The position numbers were made by a program, and so were the translations under genes. Shown piece after piece: positions 10,397 to 64,000 of a DNA stretch of 64,000 nt. The stretch spans positions 73,627-137,626 of the forward strand of contig CAVDBL010000004.1 of NCBI GenBank assembly GCA_963607345.1. Reading direction: 5' to 3'. The notes under the pieces are model-generated. The model was given only the letters and a program-made list of their open reading frames with translations, ran no database searches and had not been told where the DNA came from. The stretch's first letter is position 1. Every line of letters begins with the position of its first letter. Source of the DNA: Bifidobacteriaceae bacterium (GTDB lineage: Bacteria; Bacteroidota; Bacteroidia; Bacteroidales; Marinilabiliaceae).

Positions 10397-10770
10397 GTAG
10401 CAGGACGGTCTATCGCTGGTCATTCATTTGACGAGAGGAAAGTCCGGGCAATATAGAGCATCGCGCTTCCTAATTAGAAGAGAGCCGCAAGGTTCTGTTT
10501 TCGTAACAGAAAATTACCGCCTCAGGGTAAGGGTGAAAAGGCGAGGTAAGAGCTCACCGCGTCGCAGGTGACTGCGGCGGCCATACGAATCCGCGAATTG
10601 TAAGGCCATGTACACTCAATTCAGCCTCGCGCTGCTGGTGCTGCTCGTGCCAGGTCTTCGGACGATTGAGGGGGTAGGCTGCTTGAGCCACACGGTGACG
10701 TGTCGGCCTAGATAAATGATAGACATCCATCTCCCGATGGACACAGAACTCGGCTTATAGACCTGCTACC
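10397..10770 (+). ncRNA. rnpB: RNase P RNA, bacterial type A
   Basis: Conserved GAGGAAAGTCCGGGC (P4 5' strand), GGTAAGGGTGAAAAGGCGAGGTAAGAGCTCACC (P10-12 region) and ACAGAACTCGGCTTA (P4 3' strand). P1 pairing GTAGCAGG (10397-10404) with CCTGCTAC (10762-10769). Confidence 0.94.
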
Positions 10771-10777
10771 ATTACAA

Positions 10778-18858: not shown

Positions 18859-18886
18859 CATCGTCAAACAACGACACAATCTTCTT

Positions 18887-18958
18887 GGCCGATTCGTCTA
18901 ACGGTTAGGACATCAGATTCTCAATCTGGCAATAAGAGTTCGATTCTCTTATCGGCTA
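18887..18958 (+). tRNA. tRNA-Glu (anticodon CUC)
   Basis: 72-nt cloverleaf: acceptor GGCCGAT/ATCGGCT, D-arm TTCGTCTAACGGTTAGGAC typical of tRNA-Glu, anticodon loop TTCTCAA with CTC at 18920-18922, T-arm AAGAGTTCGATTCTCTT. Confidence 0.9.
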
Positions 18959-19021
18959 CATCTAAGCTGCCTCTCCGAGGTGGCTTTTTTTGTAAACAAC
19001 AGCATCCCTATTTTTCCCATC

Positions 19022-24114: not shown

Positions 24115-24138
24115 CATCGTCAAACAACGACACCATCT

Positions 24139-24210
24139 GGCCGATTCGTCTAACGGTTAGGACATCAGATTCTCAATCTGGCAATAAGAGTTCGATTCTC
24201 TTATCGGCTA
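24139..24210 (+). tRNA. tRNA-Glu (anticodon CUC), second identical copy
   Basis: The 72-nt sequence is identical to 18887-18958. Confidence 0.9.
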
Positions 24211-24216
24211 CCACTC

Positions 24217-47847: not shown

Positions 47848-49071
47848 ATGCAGACCTTTTCTACAGAAATCAAGTTGAGTTTCCTCTTGAGGAACACCAA
47901 GTCAACAAGTCCAACAGTTATTTATGCTTATTTAAGATTCAGAGGCAAGTTTAAAAAGTTTCCGACTGGAGTTAAGGTGTTACCTAAACACTGGAACAGG
48001 GACGCTCAATTTGCGGTCACAGGGGGTAAAATAACGGCTTTAGACAAGAGCGCCAATGTAAAGTGCAATGAAGTTTTAGAGTTGATTAGAAGGCGTTTCA
48101 AGGAGGTCGTAGAGGAGGTTGAGGGTAACGATATTCTTGACAAGGTTTACGGTCTCTTGACTGGTAAAGAAGACTGTAGCCTGCTTGACGCTTTAAACGA
48201 GGTTGTCAAGGATAAAGGCGCAATGTATCGTTTAGCTGTTGAGTGGTTAAGCAGGTACTTAAAGGAGAATCCTATTAACGTAAAAGAGCTTAATAAGATT
48301 TATCTTGAAGGTTTTAAGGAGTGGTTTTTGAGGAGCGGCAAACAGGCTATTTACATGAAGACTTTATGCTCCTGTTTAAAAACCTCATTCAAGGAGGCTA
48401 ATCTAAAAGGGCTTATAGACGACGATACATACAGCAGAATAGCCTTTTATAAATTCAACATACAGGACAAGGCGAACAGGGTTAAACCGTTCCTTTACGA
48501 CAATGAAGTAATACAGCTGTACAACGTAACAACAGAAACGGAGGACGAACGTACTGTTGTAGACCTCTTTATTCTTGAATGTACATTAGGTCAACGTGTT
48601 GGCGATACAGGGCGAATAGACGAATGTGTCAAGAAGGTAGGCGACAAGTGGATTCTGGAGCTTGTTCAGCAGAAGACGAAGAAAAGGGTCGTTTGTGATG
48701 TTCTTTTCAAGCTGCCAATAGAGATACTGGAGCGCAACAGGTTTAACATTCCCGAAATAGACATAAGCCGCTACAATAGGCTTATTAAGAAATTAGCTCA
48801 ACGAGCTGGACTGAACAGGCTTTTTGAGGTTGAGAAGCACAGCGCCACGACAACGGTAGAGAAGAAACCTTTATACTCAATAATATCAAGTCATGTAGGC
48901 AGGCATACGTTTGACGCTTTATTAAGGATGCGAGGTTACACCCCAGCTCAAATAACTAAATACAGCGGTCATTCAGAAAAAGAGGTGTTAAGCTATACGG
49001 CTGCTTTTTACGAGGACCGTGATATAGCGTATTATGAGGCTTTAAAAGTCAAGCTTGAAATGATAAAATAA
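47848..49071 (+). CDS. Tyrosine-type site-specific integrase (phage integrase family)
   Basis: Catalytic-domain residues LGQRVGD (Arg), HVGRHTFDALL (H-x-x-R) and YSGHSEKEVLSYT (His/Tyr). 407 aa with no in-frame TAG. Stop is TAA. Confidence 0.9.
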   Translation: MQTFSTEIKLSFLLRNTKSTSPTVIYAYLRFRGKFKKFPTGVKVLPKHWNRDAQFAVTGGKITALDKSANVKCNEVLELIRRRFKEVVEEVEGNDILDKVYGLLTGKEDCSLLDALNEVVKDKGAMYRLAVEWLSRYLKENPINVKELNKIYLEGFKEWFLRSGKQAIYMKTLCSCLKTSFKEANLKGLIDDDTYSRIAFYKFNIQDKANRVKPFLYDNEVIQLYNVTTETEDERTVVDLFILECTLGQRVGDTGRIDECVKKVGDKWILELVQQKTKKRVVCDVLFKLPIEILERNRFNIPEIDISRYNRLIKKLAQRAGLNRLFEVEKHSATTTVEKKPLYSIISSHVGRHTFDALLRMRGYTPAQITKYSGHSEKEVLSYTAAFYEDRDIAYYEALKVKLEMIK

Positions 49072-49221: not shown

Positions 49222-49293
49222 TCTCCCATGGTGTAAAGGCAAGCACACCGCTCTCTAAAAGCGAAGGTTTCAGTTCGAATCTGAATAGGAGGA
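49222..49293 (+). tRNA. Suppressor tRNA, anticodon CUA (reads UAG); amino-acid identity probably Gln
   Basis: 72-nt cloverleaf. Acceptor TCTCCCA/TAGGAGG (U1.G72 wobble and one C6.A67 mismatch). U8. D-arm GTGT-AAAGGCAA-GCAC. Anticodon stem CCGCT/AGCGA (4 bp plus a terminal mismatch). Loop CTCTAAA with CTA at 49255-49257. 4-nt variable loop. T-arm TTCAG-TTCGAAT-CTGAA. Discriminator A. Confidence 0.8.
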
Positions 49294-49338
49294 CTATTAA
49301 TATGTAAAGTGTTGATTTATAATAGAATATAATGCAAG

Positions 49339-49526: not shown

Positions 49527-49552
49527 GGTGTTACGAAACACCTTGCTTTTTT
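49527..49552 (+). terminator. Candidate intrinsic terminator closing the tRNA/repeat region
   Basis: GGTGTT acga AACACC followed by TTGCTTTTTT. Confidence 0.5.
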
Positions 49553-49591
49553 ATGAAAATTCTTTATTATTTTTCTGCATTTTCTTTTGGA

Positions 49592-49611
49592 ATATTCTTG
49601 AAAAAGAATAT
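49592..49611. promoter_or_regulatory. Perfect 8-bp inverted repeat (operator-like) upstream of the HTH gene
   Basis: ATATTCTT gaaa AAGAATAT, 34 nt upstream of the ATG at 49645. Confidence 0.4.
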
Positions 49612-49644
49612 ATTTATAATATAATAATTAAACAACATAACGTT

Positions 49645-50463
49645 ATGAAAAAATACGTTTGTATAAACAAGAACATATTAGGGTTAAACCTTAACCAAGT
49701 ACGAATCTACTTCACAATGAAGAAGTGGACGAATAAGCACGGTATTTGTGATTTAACCCAGCATCAAATAGCAGAAAGAAGTGGTGTGCCTTATGATACT
49801 GTAATTGACAATATGACTAAAGAGTTTTACGCAGCCGCCAATTGCAGGGTTAAGAAGGTACACGTTGATTCTTATATATTCCGTAACATTTATCATTTTA
49901 CCGAGAAGAAGTTTGTGTTAATTAAAGAGGACTTCTTAAAGGTGAACGCTGACAAAAAGCTTAAAGCACTTGTTATTCTGCTCAAGCTCCTTTGTTTTAA
50001 AAATTCCAACAAGTTGGCTTATAATAAGGCTCAACTTTGCGAATTGCTTAATATGTCAAGACCTACTCTTAACAAGTACCTTAAAGCAGCTATTGAGGCT
50101 GGACTTATTAAGTATAATAAGAACTGTATTGAAATTACTTGTGCTGGCGTAACTGTCAGTGCAGTAAATTTCAACAAGTTAAGCGACGGTGATAAGGCTT
50201 ATGCTGTTATTAGTAATTATTGTGAGGCACGTGGCGTTAAGGCTCCACGTTACAACAAAAGACTGGTCAACGAGCTTAACCTTGCTTGGAATGAAGGTAA
50301 AGACAATAATGTAAATTATGCTGTTGTCAATATTATTAAGAGGCTCAACCGCTGCAACATTAAAGTTGGCAAATCATATAGTCTTGCTTATTTTCTCAAG
50401 GTTCTGCTTAACACTAAACTTGACATTAGGCGCAACGCAACTGTTTATATGACAATGAATTAA
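49645..50463 (+). CDS. Putative DNA-binding protein with two HTH/winged-helix segments (replication initiator or regulator)
   Basis: LTQHQIAERSGVPYDTVIDNM and NKAQLCELLNMSRPTLNKYLKAAIEAGLI look like HTH units. No in-frame TAG. Stop is TAA. The ATG at 49645 is used rather than the listed 49528. Confidence 0.55.
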   Translation: MKKYVCINKNILGLNLNQVRIYFTMKKWTNKHGICDLTQHQIAERSGVPYDTVIDNMTKEFYAAANCRVKKVHVDSYIFRNIYHFTEKKFVLIKEDFLKVNADKKLKALVILLKLLCFKNSNKLAYNKAQLCELLNMSRPTLNKYLKAAIEAGLIKYNKNCIEITCAGVTVSAVNFNKLSDGDKAYAVISNYCEARGVKAPRYNKRLVNELNLAWNEGKDNNVNYAVVNIIKRLNRCNIKVGKSYSLAYFLKVLLNTKLDIRRNATVYMTMN

Positions 50464-50473
50464 TATTACAAGT

Positions 50474-50719
50474 ATGAACGAAGAGGAATTATTAAAGCAA
50501 GCAATGAGCGTCCCTGAAGAAAAAGCGAATAAATTAACGACGATACTTAATAATACACGTCGTAGCAGAAGGGATTCAGAATCTCTTATTGAGGAGTTAA
50601 TAGAGAAAAGAAAACGAGTAGCCGAAAACAGGATTAACTTCAGCAGCTTAACGGAGGAGTGCAGACGTATAAATAAAATACTTGATAAAAATAAAAAATA
50701 TGATATAGAATTTTCTTGA
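50474..50719 (+). CDS. Small charged hypothetical protein
   Basis: 81-aa ORF with no in-frame TAG. Stop is TGA. Confidence 0.45.
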   Translation: MNEEELLKQAMSVPEEKANKLTTILNNTRRSRRDSESLIEELIEKRKRVAENRINFSSLTEECRRINKILDKNKKYDIEFS

Positions 50720-52051: not shown

Positions 52052-52391
52052 CGCTGTATTTACGCTGTATGAGCGTTTTAAAAGACTTCTTCCAAACTCA
52101 AATCATGAACTATTGAGCGATACGTTATTGAAGTTGACTGTTACTTATGATCCCAACAGGGATTTTATAGAGCAGTTCAAGGAGACTTGGGATTAGTTGG
52201 CTCAATGTTTTTAGAGGTCTAATTATTACTCGAAAGGTTATCACGTCTCATTGGAGGATATACCGAATCCTGAAGAGGAGGAGCGGAACGCGTATGATAT
52301 TATTAATGATAAGGAGTTAATAAAAGATGCCGTGGTTGAAACAGCTGCAAAGGCGACCAAAAGCCGAAAGCGAAGAGAGAAAAAAGCGTAA
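51972..52391 (+). CDS. Hypothetical protein with basic C-terminus (3 in-frame TAG)
   Basis: Open only if the TAGs at 52020, 52194 and 52212 are decoded: ...FTLYERFKRLLPNSNHELLSDTLLKLTVTYDPNRDFIEQFKETWD*LAQCF*RSNYY...KSRKRREKKA. Stop is TAA. The start is uncertain (ATG 51972/51984 or GTG 52029). Confidence 0.42.
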
Positions 52392-52719
52392 AGAGATTTA
52401 TAATACAGAACGTTGGCGCAAATTGAGGGGCGGCTATTTCATGTAGCACCCTTTATGCGAACTCTGTTATTAGAAGGGTATTATTAGAGAAGCGACGGAC
52501 GTGCATCATGTCATTTCACCGTTCAGCAGTGAACAAGGGAAACAAAACCCTTTACTTTATGCTTATGACGCTGACAACTTGATAAGCTTATGTAAAGAAT
52601 GTCATTCAGAATTGCACGGAAACAAACAAGAAGAATCATTATACGATATTTATTATGAACGAAAAATTAAGCAAACAACAATTACTGAAGAAGATACAGG
52701 ACGTGACGAAATGCAGTGA
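52327..52719 (+). CDS. HNH endonuclease (terminase-associated type), 2 in-frame TAG
   Basis: ...YNTERWRKLRGGYFM*HPLCELCY*KGIIREATDVHHVISP...NLISLCKECHSELHG has the classic phage HNH layout. TAGs at 52444 and 52471. Stop is TGA. Confidence 0.85.
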
Positions 52720-53053
52720 TACGACAACAGAATATGTATCACTTGTTATAGACGGTTTGGAGCAGCAGGGAAAACTTGACGCTGTAGATTAGGGGGCTTT
52801 AATACTATTGGCTAATTCTTATAATTTACAGCTTAAAGCAGTAGAGGAGCTTAACAAGTCAACCTTGCTGGTAATGAACGGAAACACGCCAATGAAGAAT
52901 CCGCTTGTGCAGATAATAGTATCTTGTCAAGGTTTATGCGTAAGAATAATGCAGGATTTTGGTTTAACTGCACGTAGTCGAAAATACCTTAACAAGGGAG
53001 AAGAGAAAAAGGAAGTTGAAGAGAGCGCACTTGATTCATTTTTAAAGAGTTAA
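52655..53053 (+). CDS. terS: Terminase small subunit (P27-family-like), 1 in-frame TAG
   Basis: MNEKLSKQQLLKKIQ...LDAVD*GALILLANSYNLQLKAVEELNK...NPLVQIIVSCQGLCVRIMQDFGLTARSRKYL. TAG at 52790. Stop is TAA. Confidence 0.78.
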
Positions 53054-53057
53054 CATT

Positions 53058-53642
53058 ATGAAAGAGTATCTTAAATACGCTTAGGATACTGTTAGTAGTG
53101 AAAAAGCAGGCAACCTTATAAAGTTATCATGCAGCAGGTTTCTTAATGATTTAAGAAGAGAGGATTTAGAGTTTAGGGAAAATGAAGTAGACCGCTGCAT
53201 AAACTTTATAGGGTTGTTCAAGCATTATACTGGTTCACATTCTGGAAAACAGTTCAAGCTTGAACCTTGGCAATAGTTTATAGCAGCCAACATTGTAGGG
53301 TTCTATTGGAAAGGGACAAACAGGAGGAGGTTTACTAATAGCTATATAGAGGTTGCTAGAAAAGCTGGCAAGAGCTAGCTGGCAGCAGCCTTATGCTTAT
53401 ACTTCTTAATTGCGGACAAGGAGGACGGTGCTGAAGTCCTTTTGGCGGCAAACAGTAAAGATTAGGCTAAAATAGCTTTTGAGATGTGCAGCGTTTTCGC
53501 CAAACAGCTTGACAAGACAGGTAAAAAGCTGATTTGTTACAGGGCTGATATACTTTTCAACACTACTAACAGCAAGCTTAAATGTTTAGCTGCTGACGAT
53601 TCTAAACTTGACGGCTTTAACGCTTCATTTGGTCTTATTGAT
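53058..53642 (+). CDS. terL: Terminase large subunit, exon 1 (195 codons, 4 in-frame TAG)
   Basis: MKEYLKYA*DTV...FKLEPWQ*FIAANIVGFYW...VARKAGKS*LAAALCLYFLIADKEDGAEVLLAANSKD*AKIAFEMC...FNASFGLID carries the Walker A motif and the start of Walker B. TAGs at 53082, 53274, 53376 and 53463. Confidence 0.88.
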
Positions 53643-54591
53643 AAATATTTGTCAATGTAAAAGTACTTTAATTACGGGAAACTCCTAAAGTTCGCAATAC
53701 CAACTTAATAAAGTGATTTATTAAGGGCTAAACTAATCATTTAGAGAAGGTAACAAGTTGCGAAATTGGAAAATCCGTAACCAAGCAACTTTTTTAAAAG
53801 TTGAAGGTTCAACGACTACCGAAAGCACATCTTTTAGGTGGAAGCAAGTAGGGTACAATGTAAGCTAATGACATTGGAAATGGGTGCAGTCTACATACGT
53901 GTATTTCATAATACTTTAATAATAAGCGAGATGAAAATATATGTATTAAAAGATCCTCGGAATGATTAGATTAGGTATGTAGGGGTGACAACGCAAGCTT
54001 TAAATCAAAGATTATCACAACATATAAACGCCGCTAAAAAGAACGAAATGAGACACGTTTGTAAGTGGATAAAAGTTTTGTTAAAGCTTGAATTACGACC
54101 TATTATTGAGCAAATAGATGAAGTTGATAATGAGCAGTGGTAGGAATGGGAGGTTTATTATATCTCATATTATCGGAAAATTGGGTGTGAACTTACAAAC
54201 ATTGATAAAGGAGGAAACGGTGTAGTTTCTGCTGAAAAGAGGTCAAAGGATTCAATGTTAAGAAGCTCCGAAAAACACAAGAAACCTGTTTATCAACTTA
54301 ATAGGAACCTTGAAATAATAAAAGAGTGGAAATCTGTAACAGATGCCTGTAATGAGTTGGGGTATAAGCAAGCCAATATCGCCAACGCCTTACATAAAAA
54401 AATAGGAGCTTATGGGTATTTATGGTGCAGGGTTTCTGAATTTGCGAACTATAAACCTAAAAGTAATTATCTAAATCCAAGAGGATGTAAGTAGATTAAG
54501 ATATAGTCTTAACTCTTGAGAAATCAAGAGCAGTTTGTGGGAAAATACCCACCGCTGTACTATATTTTGCGAATATAGTAAAAAATAATTG
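53643..54591 (+). mobile_element. Group I self-splicing intron (phage IA-like core) interrupting terL and carrying a homing endonuclease gene
   Basis: P1: exon end ATTGAT (53637-53642) pairs with the intron sequence GTCAAT (53651-53656), with a U.G pair at the splice site. The last intron nucleotide is G (54591). Joining the exons restores GAT|GAA TTT CAC = LIDEFH. Core-like elements are AACGACTA (53811), AAGTAGGGT (53846) and the hairpin CAATGT...ACATTG (53856/53871). Confidence 0.82.
53931..54512 (+). CDS. Intron-encoded GIY-YIG homing endonuclease with C-terminal HTH-like DNA-binding module (4 TAG read as sense)
   Basis: MKIYVLKDPRND*IRYVGVTTQALNQRLSQHI...EQW*EWEVYYISYYRKIGCELTNIDKGGNG, then ...VYQLNRNLEIIKEWKSVTDACNELGYKQANIANALHKKIGAYGYLW. 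TAGs at 53967, 54141, 54492 and 54504. Stop is TAA at 54510. Confidence 0.82.
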
Positions 54592-55626
54592 GAATTTCAC
54601 TCGGCTAAAAACAGTAAAGTACGTGATGTTATCAAGAGTTCAATGGGTATGAGGTCAAGACCACATTTATGTACGATAACTACAGCAGGATTTAATAAGA
54701 ACAGTCCTTGTTACGAGTTAAGGACAACTTGTTGTGAAGTGCTTAAAGGTATAAAGCAGGACGATTCTACTTTTGCCGCTATATATTCACTTGACGAGGG
54801 TGACGACTGGAAGAATCCTGAAGTTTGGGCAAAATCGAACCCTAATTTAGGTGTTACAGTATTTCCAGAATACTTAAAAGAGCAGGTTAATTTAGCTATT
54901 AATAATCCAAGCGAGGAGGTTGGGGTAAAGACTAAAAACCTTAATATGTGGTGTGATGTTTCCGACGTTTGGATTAATGATATATCACTGGTTCAAAACT
55001 CAAAACAACTTGATTTAAGCGTATTTAAAAACCGACAAGTTTATGTGGGCGTGGATTTAGCCGCAACAGGAGATTTGACCGCCGTATCATATATGACTGA
55101 AATTGACAATGTAAAATACTTTTATGTAAAGTACTATTTGCCAAGCTCTTGTCTGGACGGTAAAAAGAACTCTTATAATTACAGAAATTGGAAGAATAGC
55201 GGCTACTTGACAGTTACGGAGGGTAATGTTACAGACTACGACTACATTACTAAAGATATGCTGGAGGTTGCCCAAAATGCTCAAATATGCAATGTTGCTT
55301 ATGACAATTGGAACAGTACGCAATGGGCTATAGACGCTGTTTCAAAAGGTCTGCCGCTAAATCCTTATAGTCAGTCTATTGGCAATTTTAACAGACCTAC
55401 AAAAGAATTTGAGCGGCTTCTATACGGTGGAGGAATAGTAATAGATTCAAATCCGATTAACAGGTTCTGCTTTAAAAACGTCGTGTTAAAAACAGACCAT
55501 AACGGAAACAGCAAACCGAGTAAAGAGAGTTATAATAATAAAATAGACGGTGTTATAGCGATGCTTATGAGTTTAGGAGGTTATCTGCAAACACCAAAAT
55601 ATAATAATCAAATTTTTTCTGTATAA
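54592..55626 (+). CDS. terL: Terminase large subunit, exon 2 (nuclease half)
   Basis: EFHSAKNSKVRDVIKSSMGMRSRPHLCTITTAGFNKNSPCYE...VGVDLAATGDLTAV...IDGVIAML, Terminase_1-like. No TAG. Stop is TAA. Confidence 0.88.
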   Translation, partial: EFHSAKNSKVRDVIKSSMGMRSRPHLCTITTAGFNKNSPCYELRTTCCEVLKGIKQDDSTFAAIYSLDEGDDWKNPEVWAKSNPNLGVTVFPEYLKEQVNLAINNPSEEVGVKTKNLNMWCDVSDVWINDISLVQNSKQLDLSVFKNRQVYVGVDLAATGDLTAVSYMTEIDNVKYFYVKYYLPSSCLDGKKNSYNYRNWKNSGYLTVTEGNVTDYDYITKDMLEVAQNAQICNVAYDNWNSTQWAIDAVSKGLPLNPYSQSIGNFNRPTKEFERLLYGGGIVIDSNPINRFCFKNVVLKTDHNGNSKPSKESYNNKIDGVIAMLMSLGGYLQTPKYNNQIFSV

Positions 55627-55639
55627 TAGAAAAGAAGAT

Positions 55640-56866
55640 ATGAAATTTATCGATTTTTTTAAACGAAATAGAAGTCCTTAGGAAACTGAAAAACGTTCAT
55701 TGTTTGGTGACGCATTGACTTATGCGGGTTCACCAAACACTATTAGTGAGTATAAGTCGATGCTGTTGAGTACAGTTTACCGTTGTGTAGACTTGATAAG
55801 CAACAGTGTTGCCTCGCTGCCTTTTGAGCCTTATGAGGTTTCTTGTGACGGCTATAGAAAGAAGCTGCACGACCACCCTATATATCATGTACTTAATTAT
55901 GAGCCAAATGAGCGAATGACAAGGTTTATATTCATGAAAGCACTTGTTACGAGCATGATATTGAGGGGTAACGGTTATGCTTATATAGAGCGTGATAAAC
56001 TTGGTAATGTCATAAAGCTTGATTACCTTGATTCTGACAGGGTTAGCCCTATTATAGACTACACGAGCAACACTATTAAGTATTATGTAGTATCTGGTTA
56101 CAAGGTACCACGAGTGGAGCCTATAAACATGATACACTTGATAAACTTTACTTATGACGGCATAACTGGAGTATCAACATTAAAGAGCGCAAGAGGTTGT
56201 CTTTCAGCTGCTTATAATGCAGAACAGACTGCTGCTGGATTCTTTACAGGAGGTTGTAATGTTGGCGGCATACTTAAAGTTCAAGGAATGCTTAATGAAG
56301 TGCAGAAACAACAGCTAAAGTCAAGTTGGCAACAGGCGTTCAGTCCTGCTACAGGTCAACCAAATGGTGTAGCTGTTTTGGAGGGAAATATGGACTTCAG
56401 TCCTATAACGGTGAATCCTGCTGACGCTCAACTGCTTGAGAGCAGGCAATATAACGTTATAGATATTTGCCGTTTTTTTGGAGTTAACCCTACAAAAGTA
56501 TTTGACTTGACAAAAGCCTCTTATTCAACGGTGGAGGCTGAAAACCTGCAATTCTTGAACGATACGCTTCAACCGATAATAGAGAAAATAGAGCAGGAGT
56601 TTCAACGGAAACTATTTAAACCAAGTGAAAAAGCGCATACAATAGTACGATTCGATACCAGCTCAATGTTGAGGACTGATAAGAACAGTCAAGCTTCATA
56701 TTACTCAACTTTATTCAATATGGGTGCAATGAGCATCAACGAAATACGAAAAGCACTTGATTTAGAGCCTATTGAAGGTGGTGATACTCATTATGTGCAG
56801 GTTAACATGGGTGCTACAAACAATAACGAAATAAATGAAGAAGGAAATAAGGAATTACAGGAGTGA
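55640..56866 (+). CDS. Portal protein, HK97 family (1 in-frame TAG)
   Basis: MKFIDFFKRNRSP*ETEKRSLFGDALTY...STVYRCVDLISNSVASLPFEPY...NGYAYIERD... TAG at 55679. Stop is TGA. Confidence 0.9.
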
Positions 56867-57374
56867 AACCACCTTTAACGAAAGGCGTGTAACTGGTTAC
56901 GCTGTTGTGTTTAATAGTTACTCGCATGATTTAGGCGGTTTTAAGGAGATAATAGAGCCTACTGCCTTGGACGGGATAATAGAGATTTCAGACGTGCTAT
57001 GCTTAATGAACCACGACGAGGACAGGGGTGTTTTAGCACGCTCAAAATACGGAAAAGGGACGTTGGAGTTGACAATAGACGAACACGGCTTAAAATACAG
57101 TTTTGAGGCTCCACATACAGCTTTAGGAGACGAGCTTTTAGAGGGGCTTAACAGGGGCGATATTACGACCAGCTCTTTTGCCTTTACCGTCGCTGAAGAG
57201 CAGTGGGATAAAGACGAGACTGGAGTTGATATTAGAATCATAAAGAAAATAGACAGACTTTACGACGTTTCGCCAGTATATCAGGAGGCTTATCCTGATA
57301 CGGACGTTGCGCAACGGAATCACAAGCAACATTTGGACAATTACTTTTTAAAACTCAGAAAATCAATAATTTAA
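56835..57374 (+). CDS. Prohead maturation protease, HK97 family
   Basis: ...RVTGYAVVFNSYSHDLGGFKEIIEPTALDG...CLMNHDEDRGVLARS...TSSFAF... No TAG. Stop is TAA. Confidence 0.87.
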   Translation: MKKEIRNYRSETTFNERRVTGYAVVFNSYSHDLGGFKEIIEPTALDGIIEISDVLCLMNHDEDRGVLARSKYGKGTLELTIDEHGLKYSFEAPHTALGDELLEGLNRGDITTSSFAFTVAEEQWDKDETGVDIRIIKKIDRLYDVSPVYQEAYPDTDVAQRNHKQHLDNYFLKLRKSII

Positions 57375-57378
57375 CATT

Positions 57379-58656
57379 ATGAAGAACATAAATTCACTTC
57401 AAATTTTGGACAAGAAATTAAATTTACAGAAGAGGGCTACGGCTCTTTTCGATAAGGCTGAAGAGGAAGGACGTATGCTTACTGAAGACGAGCAAAAGCT
57501 TTACGAGGAAATTAAGGCTCAAATCGCTGAACTTGAAAAGCAGAAGAGTGAACTTGAGGCAAAACTGAACGAAGAAGCTTCCGACGAGGAAGAAGATAAA
57601 GAAGAGGCTTCCGACGACGAGGAAGACGACGAGGATAAAATTGAACAAAACAAACGAAACAAAAGGAATATGAAATTTAGTCTTTTAAAAGCTATTAATA
57701 GCGTAGTAAACAACCGTTCTCTTGATGAGGACGCTCAAAAAGTCATTACCCGTGGCGTAAACCAGATGCGTAATTCTGGACTTTCTTATGGTGGTCAAAT
57801 ATAGATCCCTATTGAGAACCGCGCGACGGACGGCACCTTGACTGGAGGCAATTTAAAGTCCACGACAACAAACGGAGGCAAGGAAGCTGTACCTACTGAT
57901 ACTCTTGATATTTTGACCGCCCTTCGCAACAAGCTTGTTTTAGTTCAAGCTGGTGCTACTTGCATGAACGGACTTGTAGGCAATGTTGAGATACCTGTTT
58001 ATTCTGGTTCCACTGTAGGTTGGGAAGGTGAAGTAGACGCTGCTACAAACGGCACTGGTACAATGAGTTCTGTAGAGCTTTCTCCAAAACGCATCACCGC
58101 TTATGTTGACGTTTCCAAGCAGTTCCTTATCCAGACTTCCGACGCTGCTGAAGCAATGTTGAAGAATGATATTGTTGAGGCTATATCCAATAAGCTTGAG
58201 GAAACTATTTTAGGTACTGAAGCTGGTTCTAACAAGAAACCTGCTGGTATACTCAACGGTGTAACTGCTGATACTACTGCTGTTAAATATGCTGATATTG
58301 TCTCTATGGAGGCAAGTCTTGAGGCTGCAAACATTGACGGTGATTACAAGGTAATCGTCTCCCCTACAGCAAAGGCTAAACTCAAGACCACTTCTGTTGA
58401 CGCTGGCTCTGGACGTTTCATTATGGAATCCAACGAGGTTGACGGCTATGAGGCTTTAACCACTAATGCAGTTCCTGCAAACGGTGTTATTTTCGGCAAT
58501 TTCAACGAGCTTGTCATTGGTCAGTGGGGTGCTTTTGACGTAACTGTTGACCCTTATACTCAAGCTGCGAACGGAAAGGTTAGACTTGTCGTAAATGCTT
58601 ATTTTGACGCTAAGCTTCGTCGTTCTGGAGCAGTTGTCGGTAAAATACTTGCTTAA
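57379..58656 (+). CDS. Major capsid protein, HK97 family, with N-terminal coiled-coil/acidic delta domain (1 in-frame TAG)
   Basis: Two listed ORFs (57379-57804 and 57838-58656) share a frame and are joined by the TAG at 57802 (GGQI*IPIENRA). The C-terminal part (...LRNKLVLVQAGATCMNGLVGNVEIPVYS...YFDAKLRR) is typical of HK97 MCPs. Stop is TAA. Confidence 0.9.
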
Positions 58657-63768: not shown

Positions 63769-64000
63769 CAACATACACAGGTTCATTCACGAACAGGAGC
63801 AATGATAAGTTTAGGCTGCAAATAAATTCCAGTTCTGGTAACGGTTCTAAAGAAATAACTATTACAGGGGTGACGATAAACAGCAACAGTGAAGCTACGA
63901 ACATTTACGCTCCTATTAGATATACCTCATTGGATTTCAGTATATTAACCGACGATATAGATATTTATAAAGGAGCTTTTCTTAACGCTACTGTAATACT
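63765..64000 (+). CDS. Next tail gene (distal tail protein position), 3' end outside the window
   Basis: The ATG overlaps the tape-measure stop (ATGA). MTTYTGSFTNRSNDKFRLQINSSSGNGSKEITITGV... stays open to the window edge. Confidence 0.45.
   Translation, partial: MTTYTGSFTNRSNDKFRLQINSSSGNGSKEITITGVTINSNSEATNIYAPIRYTSLDFSILTDDIDIYKGAFLNATVI

Follow-up and report, generated by a model that had tools for sequence, protein, structure and literature searches.

How does a phage make a complete large terminase subunit (TerL) when its reading frame breaks off inside the Walker B motif and resumes 949 nucleotides (nt) downstream? This question is raised by positions 53643-54591 of a 64,000-nt stretch of DNA from contig CAVDBL010000004.1 (here called the window), which lie in the terL gene of an HK97-like prophage that reads the stop codon TAG as sense. 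A preliminary description of the locus had proposed that a group I intron separates ...FGLID from EFHSAKN. Our analysis leads to the same answer with high confidence, in that the interval is very probably a genuine group I intron of the phage IA type, mobile and self-splicing. The answer rests on the boundaries of the element, the secondary structure of its RNA, a homologous family inserted at one site and alleles without the intron, whereas we infer catalysis, timing and homing from membership in the family. The parts of the interrupted gene are as follows.

53058..53642 (+), TerL exon 1: 195 codons with 4 sense TAG, containing the Walker A GKS and ending in ...FGLID with the Walker B Asp.
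53643..54591 (+), very probable group I intron: 949 nt, recognised by its exact absence from contig L241, by covariation and by partial Rfam matches.
54592..55626 (+), TerL exon 2: 344 codons and a stop, starting at EFHSAKN with the Walker B Glu and covering the remainder of the ATPase and the nuclease domain.

Without splicing, the frame of exon 1 continues through KYLSM to a TAA at 53661-63, which is the truncation foreseen in the preliminary description. Ligation of the two exons in silico gave a TerL of 539 amino acids (aa) with LIDEFH at the junction, also as foreseen, in which Walker A, the Walker B motif hhhhDE and the RNase H-like nuclease domain are contained in one polypeptide. The Pfam domain TerL_ATPase (PF03354) matched residues 70-240 and phrog_9 matched residues 7-531 (E 2e-146), each in a single stretch across residues 195/196, and TerL_nuclease (PF20441) matched residues 251-524. 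Among the homologous TerL loci of GTDB genomes and IMG/VR with a match that extends across the junction (27% to 63% identity), all 96 were contiguous at this point, and none encoded TerL as two natural polypeptides. The motif (L/I/V/F)DE(F/Y) was invariant in the same 96 sequences and the split is therefore located between the Walker B Asp and Glu, inside the motif as had been claimed. The best TerL match in the scan of genome contigs was 61% identical and belonged to a Sodaliphilus metagenome-assembled genome (MAG).

The boundaries of the element were defined by closely related phages. A look-up of the prohead protease in the window identified four contigs from near-identical phages (L240-L243), one of which, L242, was 100% identical to window positions 52835-58000, intron included. 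The flanks of L241 were 96.9% identical over 1.6 kb upstream and 99.0% identical over 3.4 kb downstream, and this contig lacked exactly positions 53643-54591. Its empty-site stretch is GGTCTTATTGACGAATTCCACTCGGC, and the junction reads CTTATTGAC directly followed by GAATTCCAC, which encodes LIDEFH. L240 and L243 were likewise empty at the intron site, and the empty alleles comprise two near-identical phages (97% to 99% identity in the flanks) and a third that is known around the junction only. The Asp codon at the junction was GAC in all 3 empty alleles and GAU in all 11 intron-bearing alleles, a difference that would fit the requirement for a U.G pair at the splice site in the P1 helix.

A different insertion, of 1044 nt and in frame, was observed in the Walker A loop of TerL in L240 (453-1496) and L243, at the site that corresponds to window positions 53363/53382. 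It extends from ALSLS to VTHN, with GK before it and T after it, and it starts with Ala, contains sense TAG codons of its own and has a weak match to LAGLIDADG_3. This insertion is a predicted intein, and terL therefore appears to host a Walker A intein or a Walker B intron in different isolates. Contig L230 carries an insertion at the Walker A site (L230:524-1534) plus the Walker B intron.

Insertions of 846 to 963 nt were found at the same site between Asp and Glu in 10 distinct other loci, the TerL proteins of which were 50% to 97% identical to that of the window. They are located after ...GAU and before GA(A/G), and all of them end in G. Of the 10 intron-bearing TerLs, 5 had an intron-less TerL as their closest relative in the set, and such a patchy distribution is the pattern that would be expected of a mobile element. 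In contig L223, which comes from sample SRR19415672, the TerL protein was 97% to 98% identical to that of the window, and at the DNA level the identity was 91% to 94% in the exons, 92% in the 5' part of the intron and 81% in the endonuclease gene and the 3' part of the intron. This may reflect either faster evolution of the open reading frame (ORF) or replacement of the intron by a different variant.

To describe the RNA, the structure was written from the window sequence and its pairs were then counted on an alignment (A2) of the 11 family members, from which the P8 loop had been deleted in silico with 6 nt kept on each side. The elements of the structure are listed below.

53637..53642 (+), P1 5' strand: the last six exon bases AUUGAU, with U53642 as the splice-site U.
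53647..53656 (+), internal guide sequence: the P10 strand AUUU (53647-50) and the P1 strand GUCAAU (53651-56).
53663..53668 (+), P3 5' strand: GUACUU, pairing with 53882-87.
53673..53807 (+), P4-P6 domain: recognised by Rfam match, covariation and blastn similarity to Twort-like phage introns.
53673-78/53774-79 (+), P4.
53683-85/53768-70 (+), P5.
53691-97/53758-64, 53704-12/53717-25 and 53728-32/53740-44 (+), P5 extension: P5a, P5b and P5c, respectively.
53781-82 and 53786-92 / 53797-803 and 53806-07 (+), P6.
53811..53818 (+), P7 5' strand: AA(C)GACUA, invariant in 11/11, with the bulged C53813 beside the G53814-C54508 pair.
53828..53840 (+), P7.1 hairpin: CAUCU-UUU-AGGUG.
53856..53876 (+), P7.2 hairpin: CAAUGU...ACAUUG.
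53882..53887 (+), P3 3' strand: GGGUGC.
53888..53894 (+), P8 5' strand: AGUCUAC.
54491..54497 (+), P8 3' strand: GUAGAUU.
54498..54510 (+), J8/7 and P7 3' strand: AAGAUA and UAGUCUU, invariant and covered by an Rfam match.
54513-30, 54531-57 and 54558-80 (+), P9 (with a GAAA loop), P9.1 and P9.2, respectively.
54591 (+), terminal guanosine (omega G): the 3' splice site, G in 11/11 homologous introns.

The architecture comprises P1, P3 to P9, an extended P5, the hairpins P7.1 and P7.2, which lie after P7 and before the 3' strand of P3 (P3'), P9.1 and P9.2, and no P2. P7 is pseudoknotted with P3, the AAGAUA of J8/7 agrees with the Rfam consensus and, by analogy, the G53814-C54508 region of P7 would be the guanosine-binding site. 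In the window sequence all pairs of the proposed helices form, by construction from that sequence. Across the 11 introns P1 was paired in 98.5% of the alignment cells with compensatory changes in 3 of 6 pairs, and the splice-site pair U53642.G53651 was kept as U.G in all of them. The pairing of AUUU with GAAU at 54592-95 in P10 was found in 97.7% of the cells (1 of 4 pairs compensatory). P3, P4, P5 and P8 were 100% paired (4 of 6, 3 of 6, 2 of 3 and 6 of 7 pairs compensatory, respectively), whereas the corresponding values were 82% for P6 (7 of 7), 95.5% for P7.2 (6 of 6) and 94.8% for P9 (6 of 7). P9.2 was counted as two helices, the inner 85.5% paired (4 of 5) and the outer 97.7% paired (4 of 4). 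P7.1 was aligned in about 5 to 7 of the 11 sequences, and 92.6% of those cells were paired. These counts support P1, P3, P4, P7.2, P8, P9 and P9.2 individually. A covarying group I fold is conserved in approximately 370 nt of non-coding sequence on the two sides of the ORF.

By this structure the intron is a predicted member of the phage IA type, IA2-like by its P7.1 and P7.2, the assignment being made at the level of subgroup IA without a split into IA1, IA2 or IA3. The P1 pairing of exon ATTGAT with GTCAAT, the splice-site U.G, the terminal G and an IA-type core had all been put forward in the preliminary description and were borne out, and the P3/P7 pairing that it named as a check is consistent. 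Its 'P8-like hairpin' at 53856-76 had to be reassigned to P7.2, the true P8 being the long-range helix 53888-94/54491-97 that closes the ORF, and its core segment AAGTAGGGT is conserved and joins P7.1 to P7.2.

Several other pairings were considered and discarded. AAAGCAC (53822-28), the thermodynamically best and Rfam-implied candidate for P3', and AAGUA (53846-50) were both ruled out by the family covariation, which places P3' at GGGUGC. An alternative P8 of AUCUUUU with AGAGGAU (53829-35/54480-86) and a local hairpin closing at the start codon of the endonuclease were ruled out in favour of the fully paired, covarying P8 listed above. A second 'AGUC' at 53889, tried as the 3' strand of P7, is part of the P8 5' strand. 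The initial guesses for P3' and P8 and the local alignment from Rfam were thus dropped because the covariation contradicts them.

Searches against Rfam gave two partial matches to Intron_gpI (RF00028), which flank the ORF and the P7.1/P7.2 insertion. In E-value mode the first covered 53667-53826 (37.1 bits, E 1.5e-7, model positions 54-153, P3 to P7) and the second 54496-54528 (22.7 bits, J8/7, P7 and P9). Of the covariance-model check that had been suggested, the matches themselves were thus obtained, and both scored below the cut-off. The low score is a limit of applying one contiguous model to an ORF-bearing intron, and the cut-off is passed by relatives that lack the ORF and have a homologous P4-P6 domain (L100, 75.1 bits; L152, 69.3 bits). 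The 5' half of the intron is 70% to 76% identical to introns in the lysin gene of a Twort-like Staphylococcus phage and the nrdD gene of an Enterococcus phage, and equally to an intron in the tape-measure gene of a faecal phage, which obtained 75.1 bits in Rfam. In scans of IMG/VR neither the endonuclease protein nor a 20-mer taken from the core gave a match, and a degenerate core pattern retrieved 120 other phage introns, none of which was similar beyond P7. The Rfam E-value scan detected no other introns in the phage part of the window (47-64 kb).

The intron contains an endonuclease ORF, as the preliminary description had claimed, and this ORF is located in the P8 loop.

53931..54512 (+), predicted GIY-YIG homing endonuclease: 193 codons and TAA, with 4 in-frame sense TAG.

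The protein matched the Pfam domain GIY-YIG (PF01541) with 30.9 bits, above the cut-off of 22.6 (E 3.4e-7), and residues Y4, R15, Y16, G18, R27, H31, E74 and N90 were invariant across 16 sequences. In a collection of 5.8 billion proteins we identified 13 homologs of 191 to 214 aa (49% to 82% identity over at least 96% of the query). All full-length homologs for which the contig was read are located between TerL_ATPase and TerL_nuclease fragments, adjoining genes for the small terminase subunit (TerS) and the portal protein. A C-terminal match to an I-HmuI_NUMOD-like domain was below the cut-off (17.1 bits versus 27), and more distant homologs carry PF07453/PF22083. A sequence search of the PDB with the endonuclease gave no significant match. 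The endonuclease presumably homes the intron into empty terL genes, for which the shared site in 11 diverged TerLs and the patchy distribution are indirect support. Another ORF of 199 aa with an I-HmuI NUMOD-like domain was observed between terL and the portal gene in L235 (3689-4288), and is a further endonuclease in the module, free-standing or intron-borne.

The 3' end of the endonuclease gene overlaps with the ribozyme core. Its final codons AAG UAG AUU AAG AUA UAG UCU UAA (54491-54512) double as the P8 3' strand, J8/7 and the P7 3' strand, and two of its TAG codons are located inside the P8 and P7 strands. Because the last codons are these strands, it is the ribozyme core that sets the conserved C-terminus ...KQ(I/V)KIQS of the homologs, and 9 of the 10 retrieved homologs end in ...(I/V)KI(QS). 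In L231, the single relative with the standard code, the endonuclease gene ends at the UAG within the P7 sequence UAGUC, which is invariant, whereas in the TAG-recoded relatives the ORF reads through this codon into P7 and on to the next TAA or TGA, towards P9. In total, 8 of the 9 distinct relatives are TAG-recoded, with 2 to 9 TAG codons per endonuclease gene.

Taken over the whole structure, 94.1% of 956 cells were standard pairs, as compared to 35.6% to 42.3% when the 3' partners were slid by 1 to 3 columns. Both sides had changed in 63 of 104 pairs, the covariation score was 0.414 versus about 0.06, and none of 500 shuffles reached any of the observed measures. The structure was drawn from the window, which somewhat favours it in the share of paired cells, though not in the compensatory counts. 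This weighs against a functional intron, as do a number of other points. P7 is backed by conservation without covariation (93.5% paired, 0 of 7 pairs compensatory, 6 of 7 invariant), the outer helix of P9.1 is paired in just 64% of the cells, and P7.1 is missing from some relatives. At the RF00028 gathering score of 50 bits there was no Rfam match in the intron, the prophage extends past the window end at 64000, and splicing, its efficiency and any need for a host factor are features that we infer. The truncated view of the prophage and the low Rfam scores, together with the fact that the intron has here been read from DNA alone, are also what speaks for a decaying relic that no longer splices, in a defective prophage where terL would amount to a pseudogene and the endonuclease would be inactive. 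We consider such decay improbable. Both exons are open and retain all conserved TerL motifs, all proposed helices are fully paired in the window (given that they were constructed from it), and the window shares all invariant core columns with its 10 relatives. With TAG read through, the ORF of the endonuclease is intact, and it has kept all catalytic residues. An identical copy is present in an independent sample, SRR13434677 (L242).

It could also be imagined that TerL consists of two polypeptides, split by a free-standing endonuclease gene and reassembled without RNA splicing, as is reportedly the case in Aeromonas phage Aeh1, where mobE splits nrdA. An ORF that reads MEFHSAKN... could begin with a TTG at 54589, and gene callers annotate two TerL fragments in all relatives. 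However, the split would separate the Mg-binding Asp from the catalytic Glu within Walker B, a free-standing gene would not need some 370 nt of covarying group I flank, and exon 1 ends in U in all 11 intron alleles and in C in the three near-identical empty alleles, all of which makes this arrangement very unlikely. That near-identical phages have an intein in the same gene, at Walker A, may bring an intein to mind at Walker B as well. However, there are TAA and TGA stops in all three frames of 53643-53930 and the insertion can therefore not be an in-frame protein insertion. As for a group II intron, neither a reverse transcriptase nor a group II RNA was matched in the Pfam and Rfam searches, and an insertion of either of these two kinds is already excluded by the sequence.

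The group I intron resides in a prophage with a modified genetic code. Up to about 47.6 kb the window consists of host chromosome with a G+C content of approximately 52%, and the prophage downstream of this point has a G+C content of 32% to 41%. The left 47 kb were identified as host chromosome because they contain a complete bacterial class A RNase P RNA (10397-10773, 218 bits). In the host part, two 100% identical 74-nt copies that contain tRNA-Glu(CUC) were observed at 18886-18959 and 24138-24211, 5,252 nt apart, and may be a tRNA duplication on either side of an integrated element. The left end of the prophage contains the following features.

47848-49071, integrase, at the left end of the prophage.
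49222-49294 (+), suppressor tRNA with anticodon CUA, needed for the TAG codons of TerL exon 1 and the endonuclease.

These are followed by TAG-free ORFs at 49528-50719, and the first TAG-containing genes appear at about 50834, which fits the published layout with early genes in the standard code and late genes recoded. From about 50.8 kb long reading frames are seen only with TAG as sense, and the coverage of 52-54 kb by stop-to-stop frames of at least 100 aa increased from 0.00 to 0.93 when TAG was read as sense. The phage is thus TAG-recoded, and its head module is HK97-like with the gene order HNH, TerS, TerL, portal, prohead protease and major capsid protein. An HNH-type ORF with 2 sense TAG (52327-52719) was noted directly 5' of TerS and TerL; the HNH-terminase order is usual in HK97-like phages, and PF01844 occurs at the equivalent place in related contigs. 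TAG is most likely decoded as Gln, judging from TerL position 136 (TAG), which was aligned with Gln in 42 of 43 homologs, though position 107 was aligned with Ala. The closest intron-less TerL relatives in IMG/VR (L020-L028, L055, L059; about 62% identity) have in-frame TGA codons at conserved Trp positions. The IMG/VR relatives read TGA as Trp, whereas the window phage and the Sodaliphilus MAG prophage (L001) have in-frame TAG, and related phages therefore differ in stop-codon reassignment.

A plausible course of events can be proposed for the intron. In the pre-mRNA, the guide AUUUGUCAAU would pair with the last six bases of exon 1 (P1, with U53642.G53651) and with the first four bases of exon 2 (P10). 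A free guanosine would bind to P7 at the G53814-C54508 pair and attack after U53642, whereupon the terminal G54591 would occupy the guanosine site and the exons would be ligated to ...CUU AUU GAU followed by GAA UUU CAC.... The predicted spliced junction is CTTATTGAT joined to GAATTTCAC, and the ligation would restore Walker B and the TerL of 539 aa. Unspliced RNA would yield an ATPase fragment of 200 aa that ends 5 codons into the intron. By analogy with I-TevI, the endonuclease would cut an intron-less terL near the conserved site during co-infection, and repair would copy the intron in. The endonuclease would be completed only with the CUA suppressor tRNA of the phage, because its ORF has four TAG sense codons.

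Similar elements are known from other phages. The td intron of phage T4 with I-TevI is a subgroup IA2 group I intron that carries a GIY-YIG homing endonuclease. It resembles the window intron in having an IA-type core with P7.1/P7.2, an intron-encoded GIY-YIG protein with catalytic residues at nearly the same positions (Y, Y, R27, H31, E about 75 and N90) and an insertion at a conserved catalytic motif of an essential nucleotide-handling enzyme. The two differ in the location of the ORF (P8 loop in the window, P6 region in td), in the host gene (terL versus thymidylate synthase) and in the lack of P2 in the window intron, the ORF of which has recoded TAG codons and a product without a significant sequence match in the PDB. 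The introns of Twortvirinae and other phages of Gram-positive bacteria (Staphylococcus lysin, Enterococcus nrdD) share the 70% to 76% nucleotide similarity over P3 to P7, the extended P5 included, and P7.1 directly after P7; however, they reside in other host genes and host phyla and have other endonuclease types, and nothing similar was found downstream of P7. Mikkonen and Alatossava are said to have described, in 1995, an intron in the terL gene of Lactobacillus delbrueckii phage LL-H, which differs from the window intron in using the standard code and a different endonuclease.

As the preliminary description had stated, introns in terminase genes are not new. Terminases are recognised as typical targets of group I introns (PMC3984707), and group I introns also interrupt terL in Bastillevirinae, where splicing of some has been shown in vitro and in vivo (PMC11878797). 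Those phages differ from the window phage in having the standard code and HNH/VSR endonucleases, and in the parts of that study considered here no insertion between the Walker B Asp and Glu is reported (PMC11878797). The statement that such an intron had not been described in a stop-codon-recoded phage went too far. Yutin et al. (2021) reported introns of crAss-like phages with reassigned stops in their ORFs, and TerL inteins that contain TAG (PMC7886860). A preprint by Borges et al. mentions that the endonuclease of an intron in 'Agate' phages is recoded and that mobile introns break up terminase genes in phages with an alternative code, and it proposes that in-frame stops delay the production of the endonuclease (10.1101/2021.08.26.457843). 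These phages have group I intron endonuclease ORFs with reassigned stops and mobile insertions in TerL in common with the window phage. However, they are crAss-like podoviruses or jumbo phages rather than a small temperate HK97-like prophage, the TerL of crAss-like phages typically carries inteins, and the examples of intron ORFs are TGA-recoded, as opposed to the TAG-recoded intron of the window for which the RNA structure has been worked out.

The terL intron is thus a real and well-supported case of a kind of element already known in phages, not a new phenomenon, and it leaves the knowledge of how group I introns work unchanged. For annotation, it means that terL in this prophage and in at least 10 related phages is one gene and not two fragments with a 'hypothetical protein' between them; standard pipelines miss the integrity of the gene on two counts, the TAG recoding and the intron. 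It also adds a structurally defined family of introns, backed by covariation, which has the Walker B codons of TerL as its target in TAG-recoded siphoviruses of the gut type that are associated with Bacteroidales. In this recoded setting, sense or stop UAG codons overlap the core of the ribozyme. Alleles with the intron, without it and with the intein, at 97% to 100% flank identity, provide a natural system for studies of homing and of the interplay between recoding and selfish elements. It is possible, albeit doubtful, that the intron and its endonuclease form a lineage adapted to TAG-recoded phages, with the genetic code gating its mobility. The endonuclease would then be made only late in infection, and its gene could not be expressed in a standard-code phage to which it had moved unless it first re-adapted. 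If so, the reassignment of the code would time a selfish element and at the same time form a barrier to its transfer.

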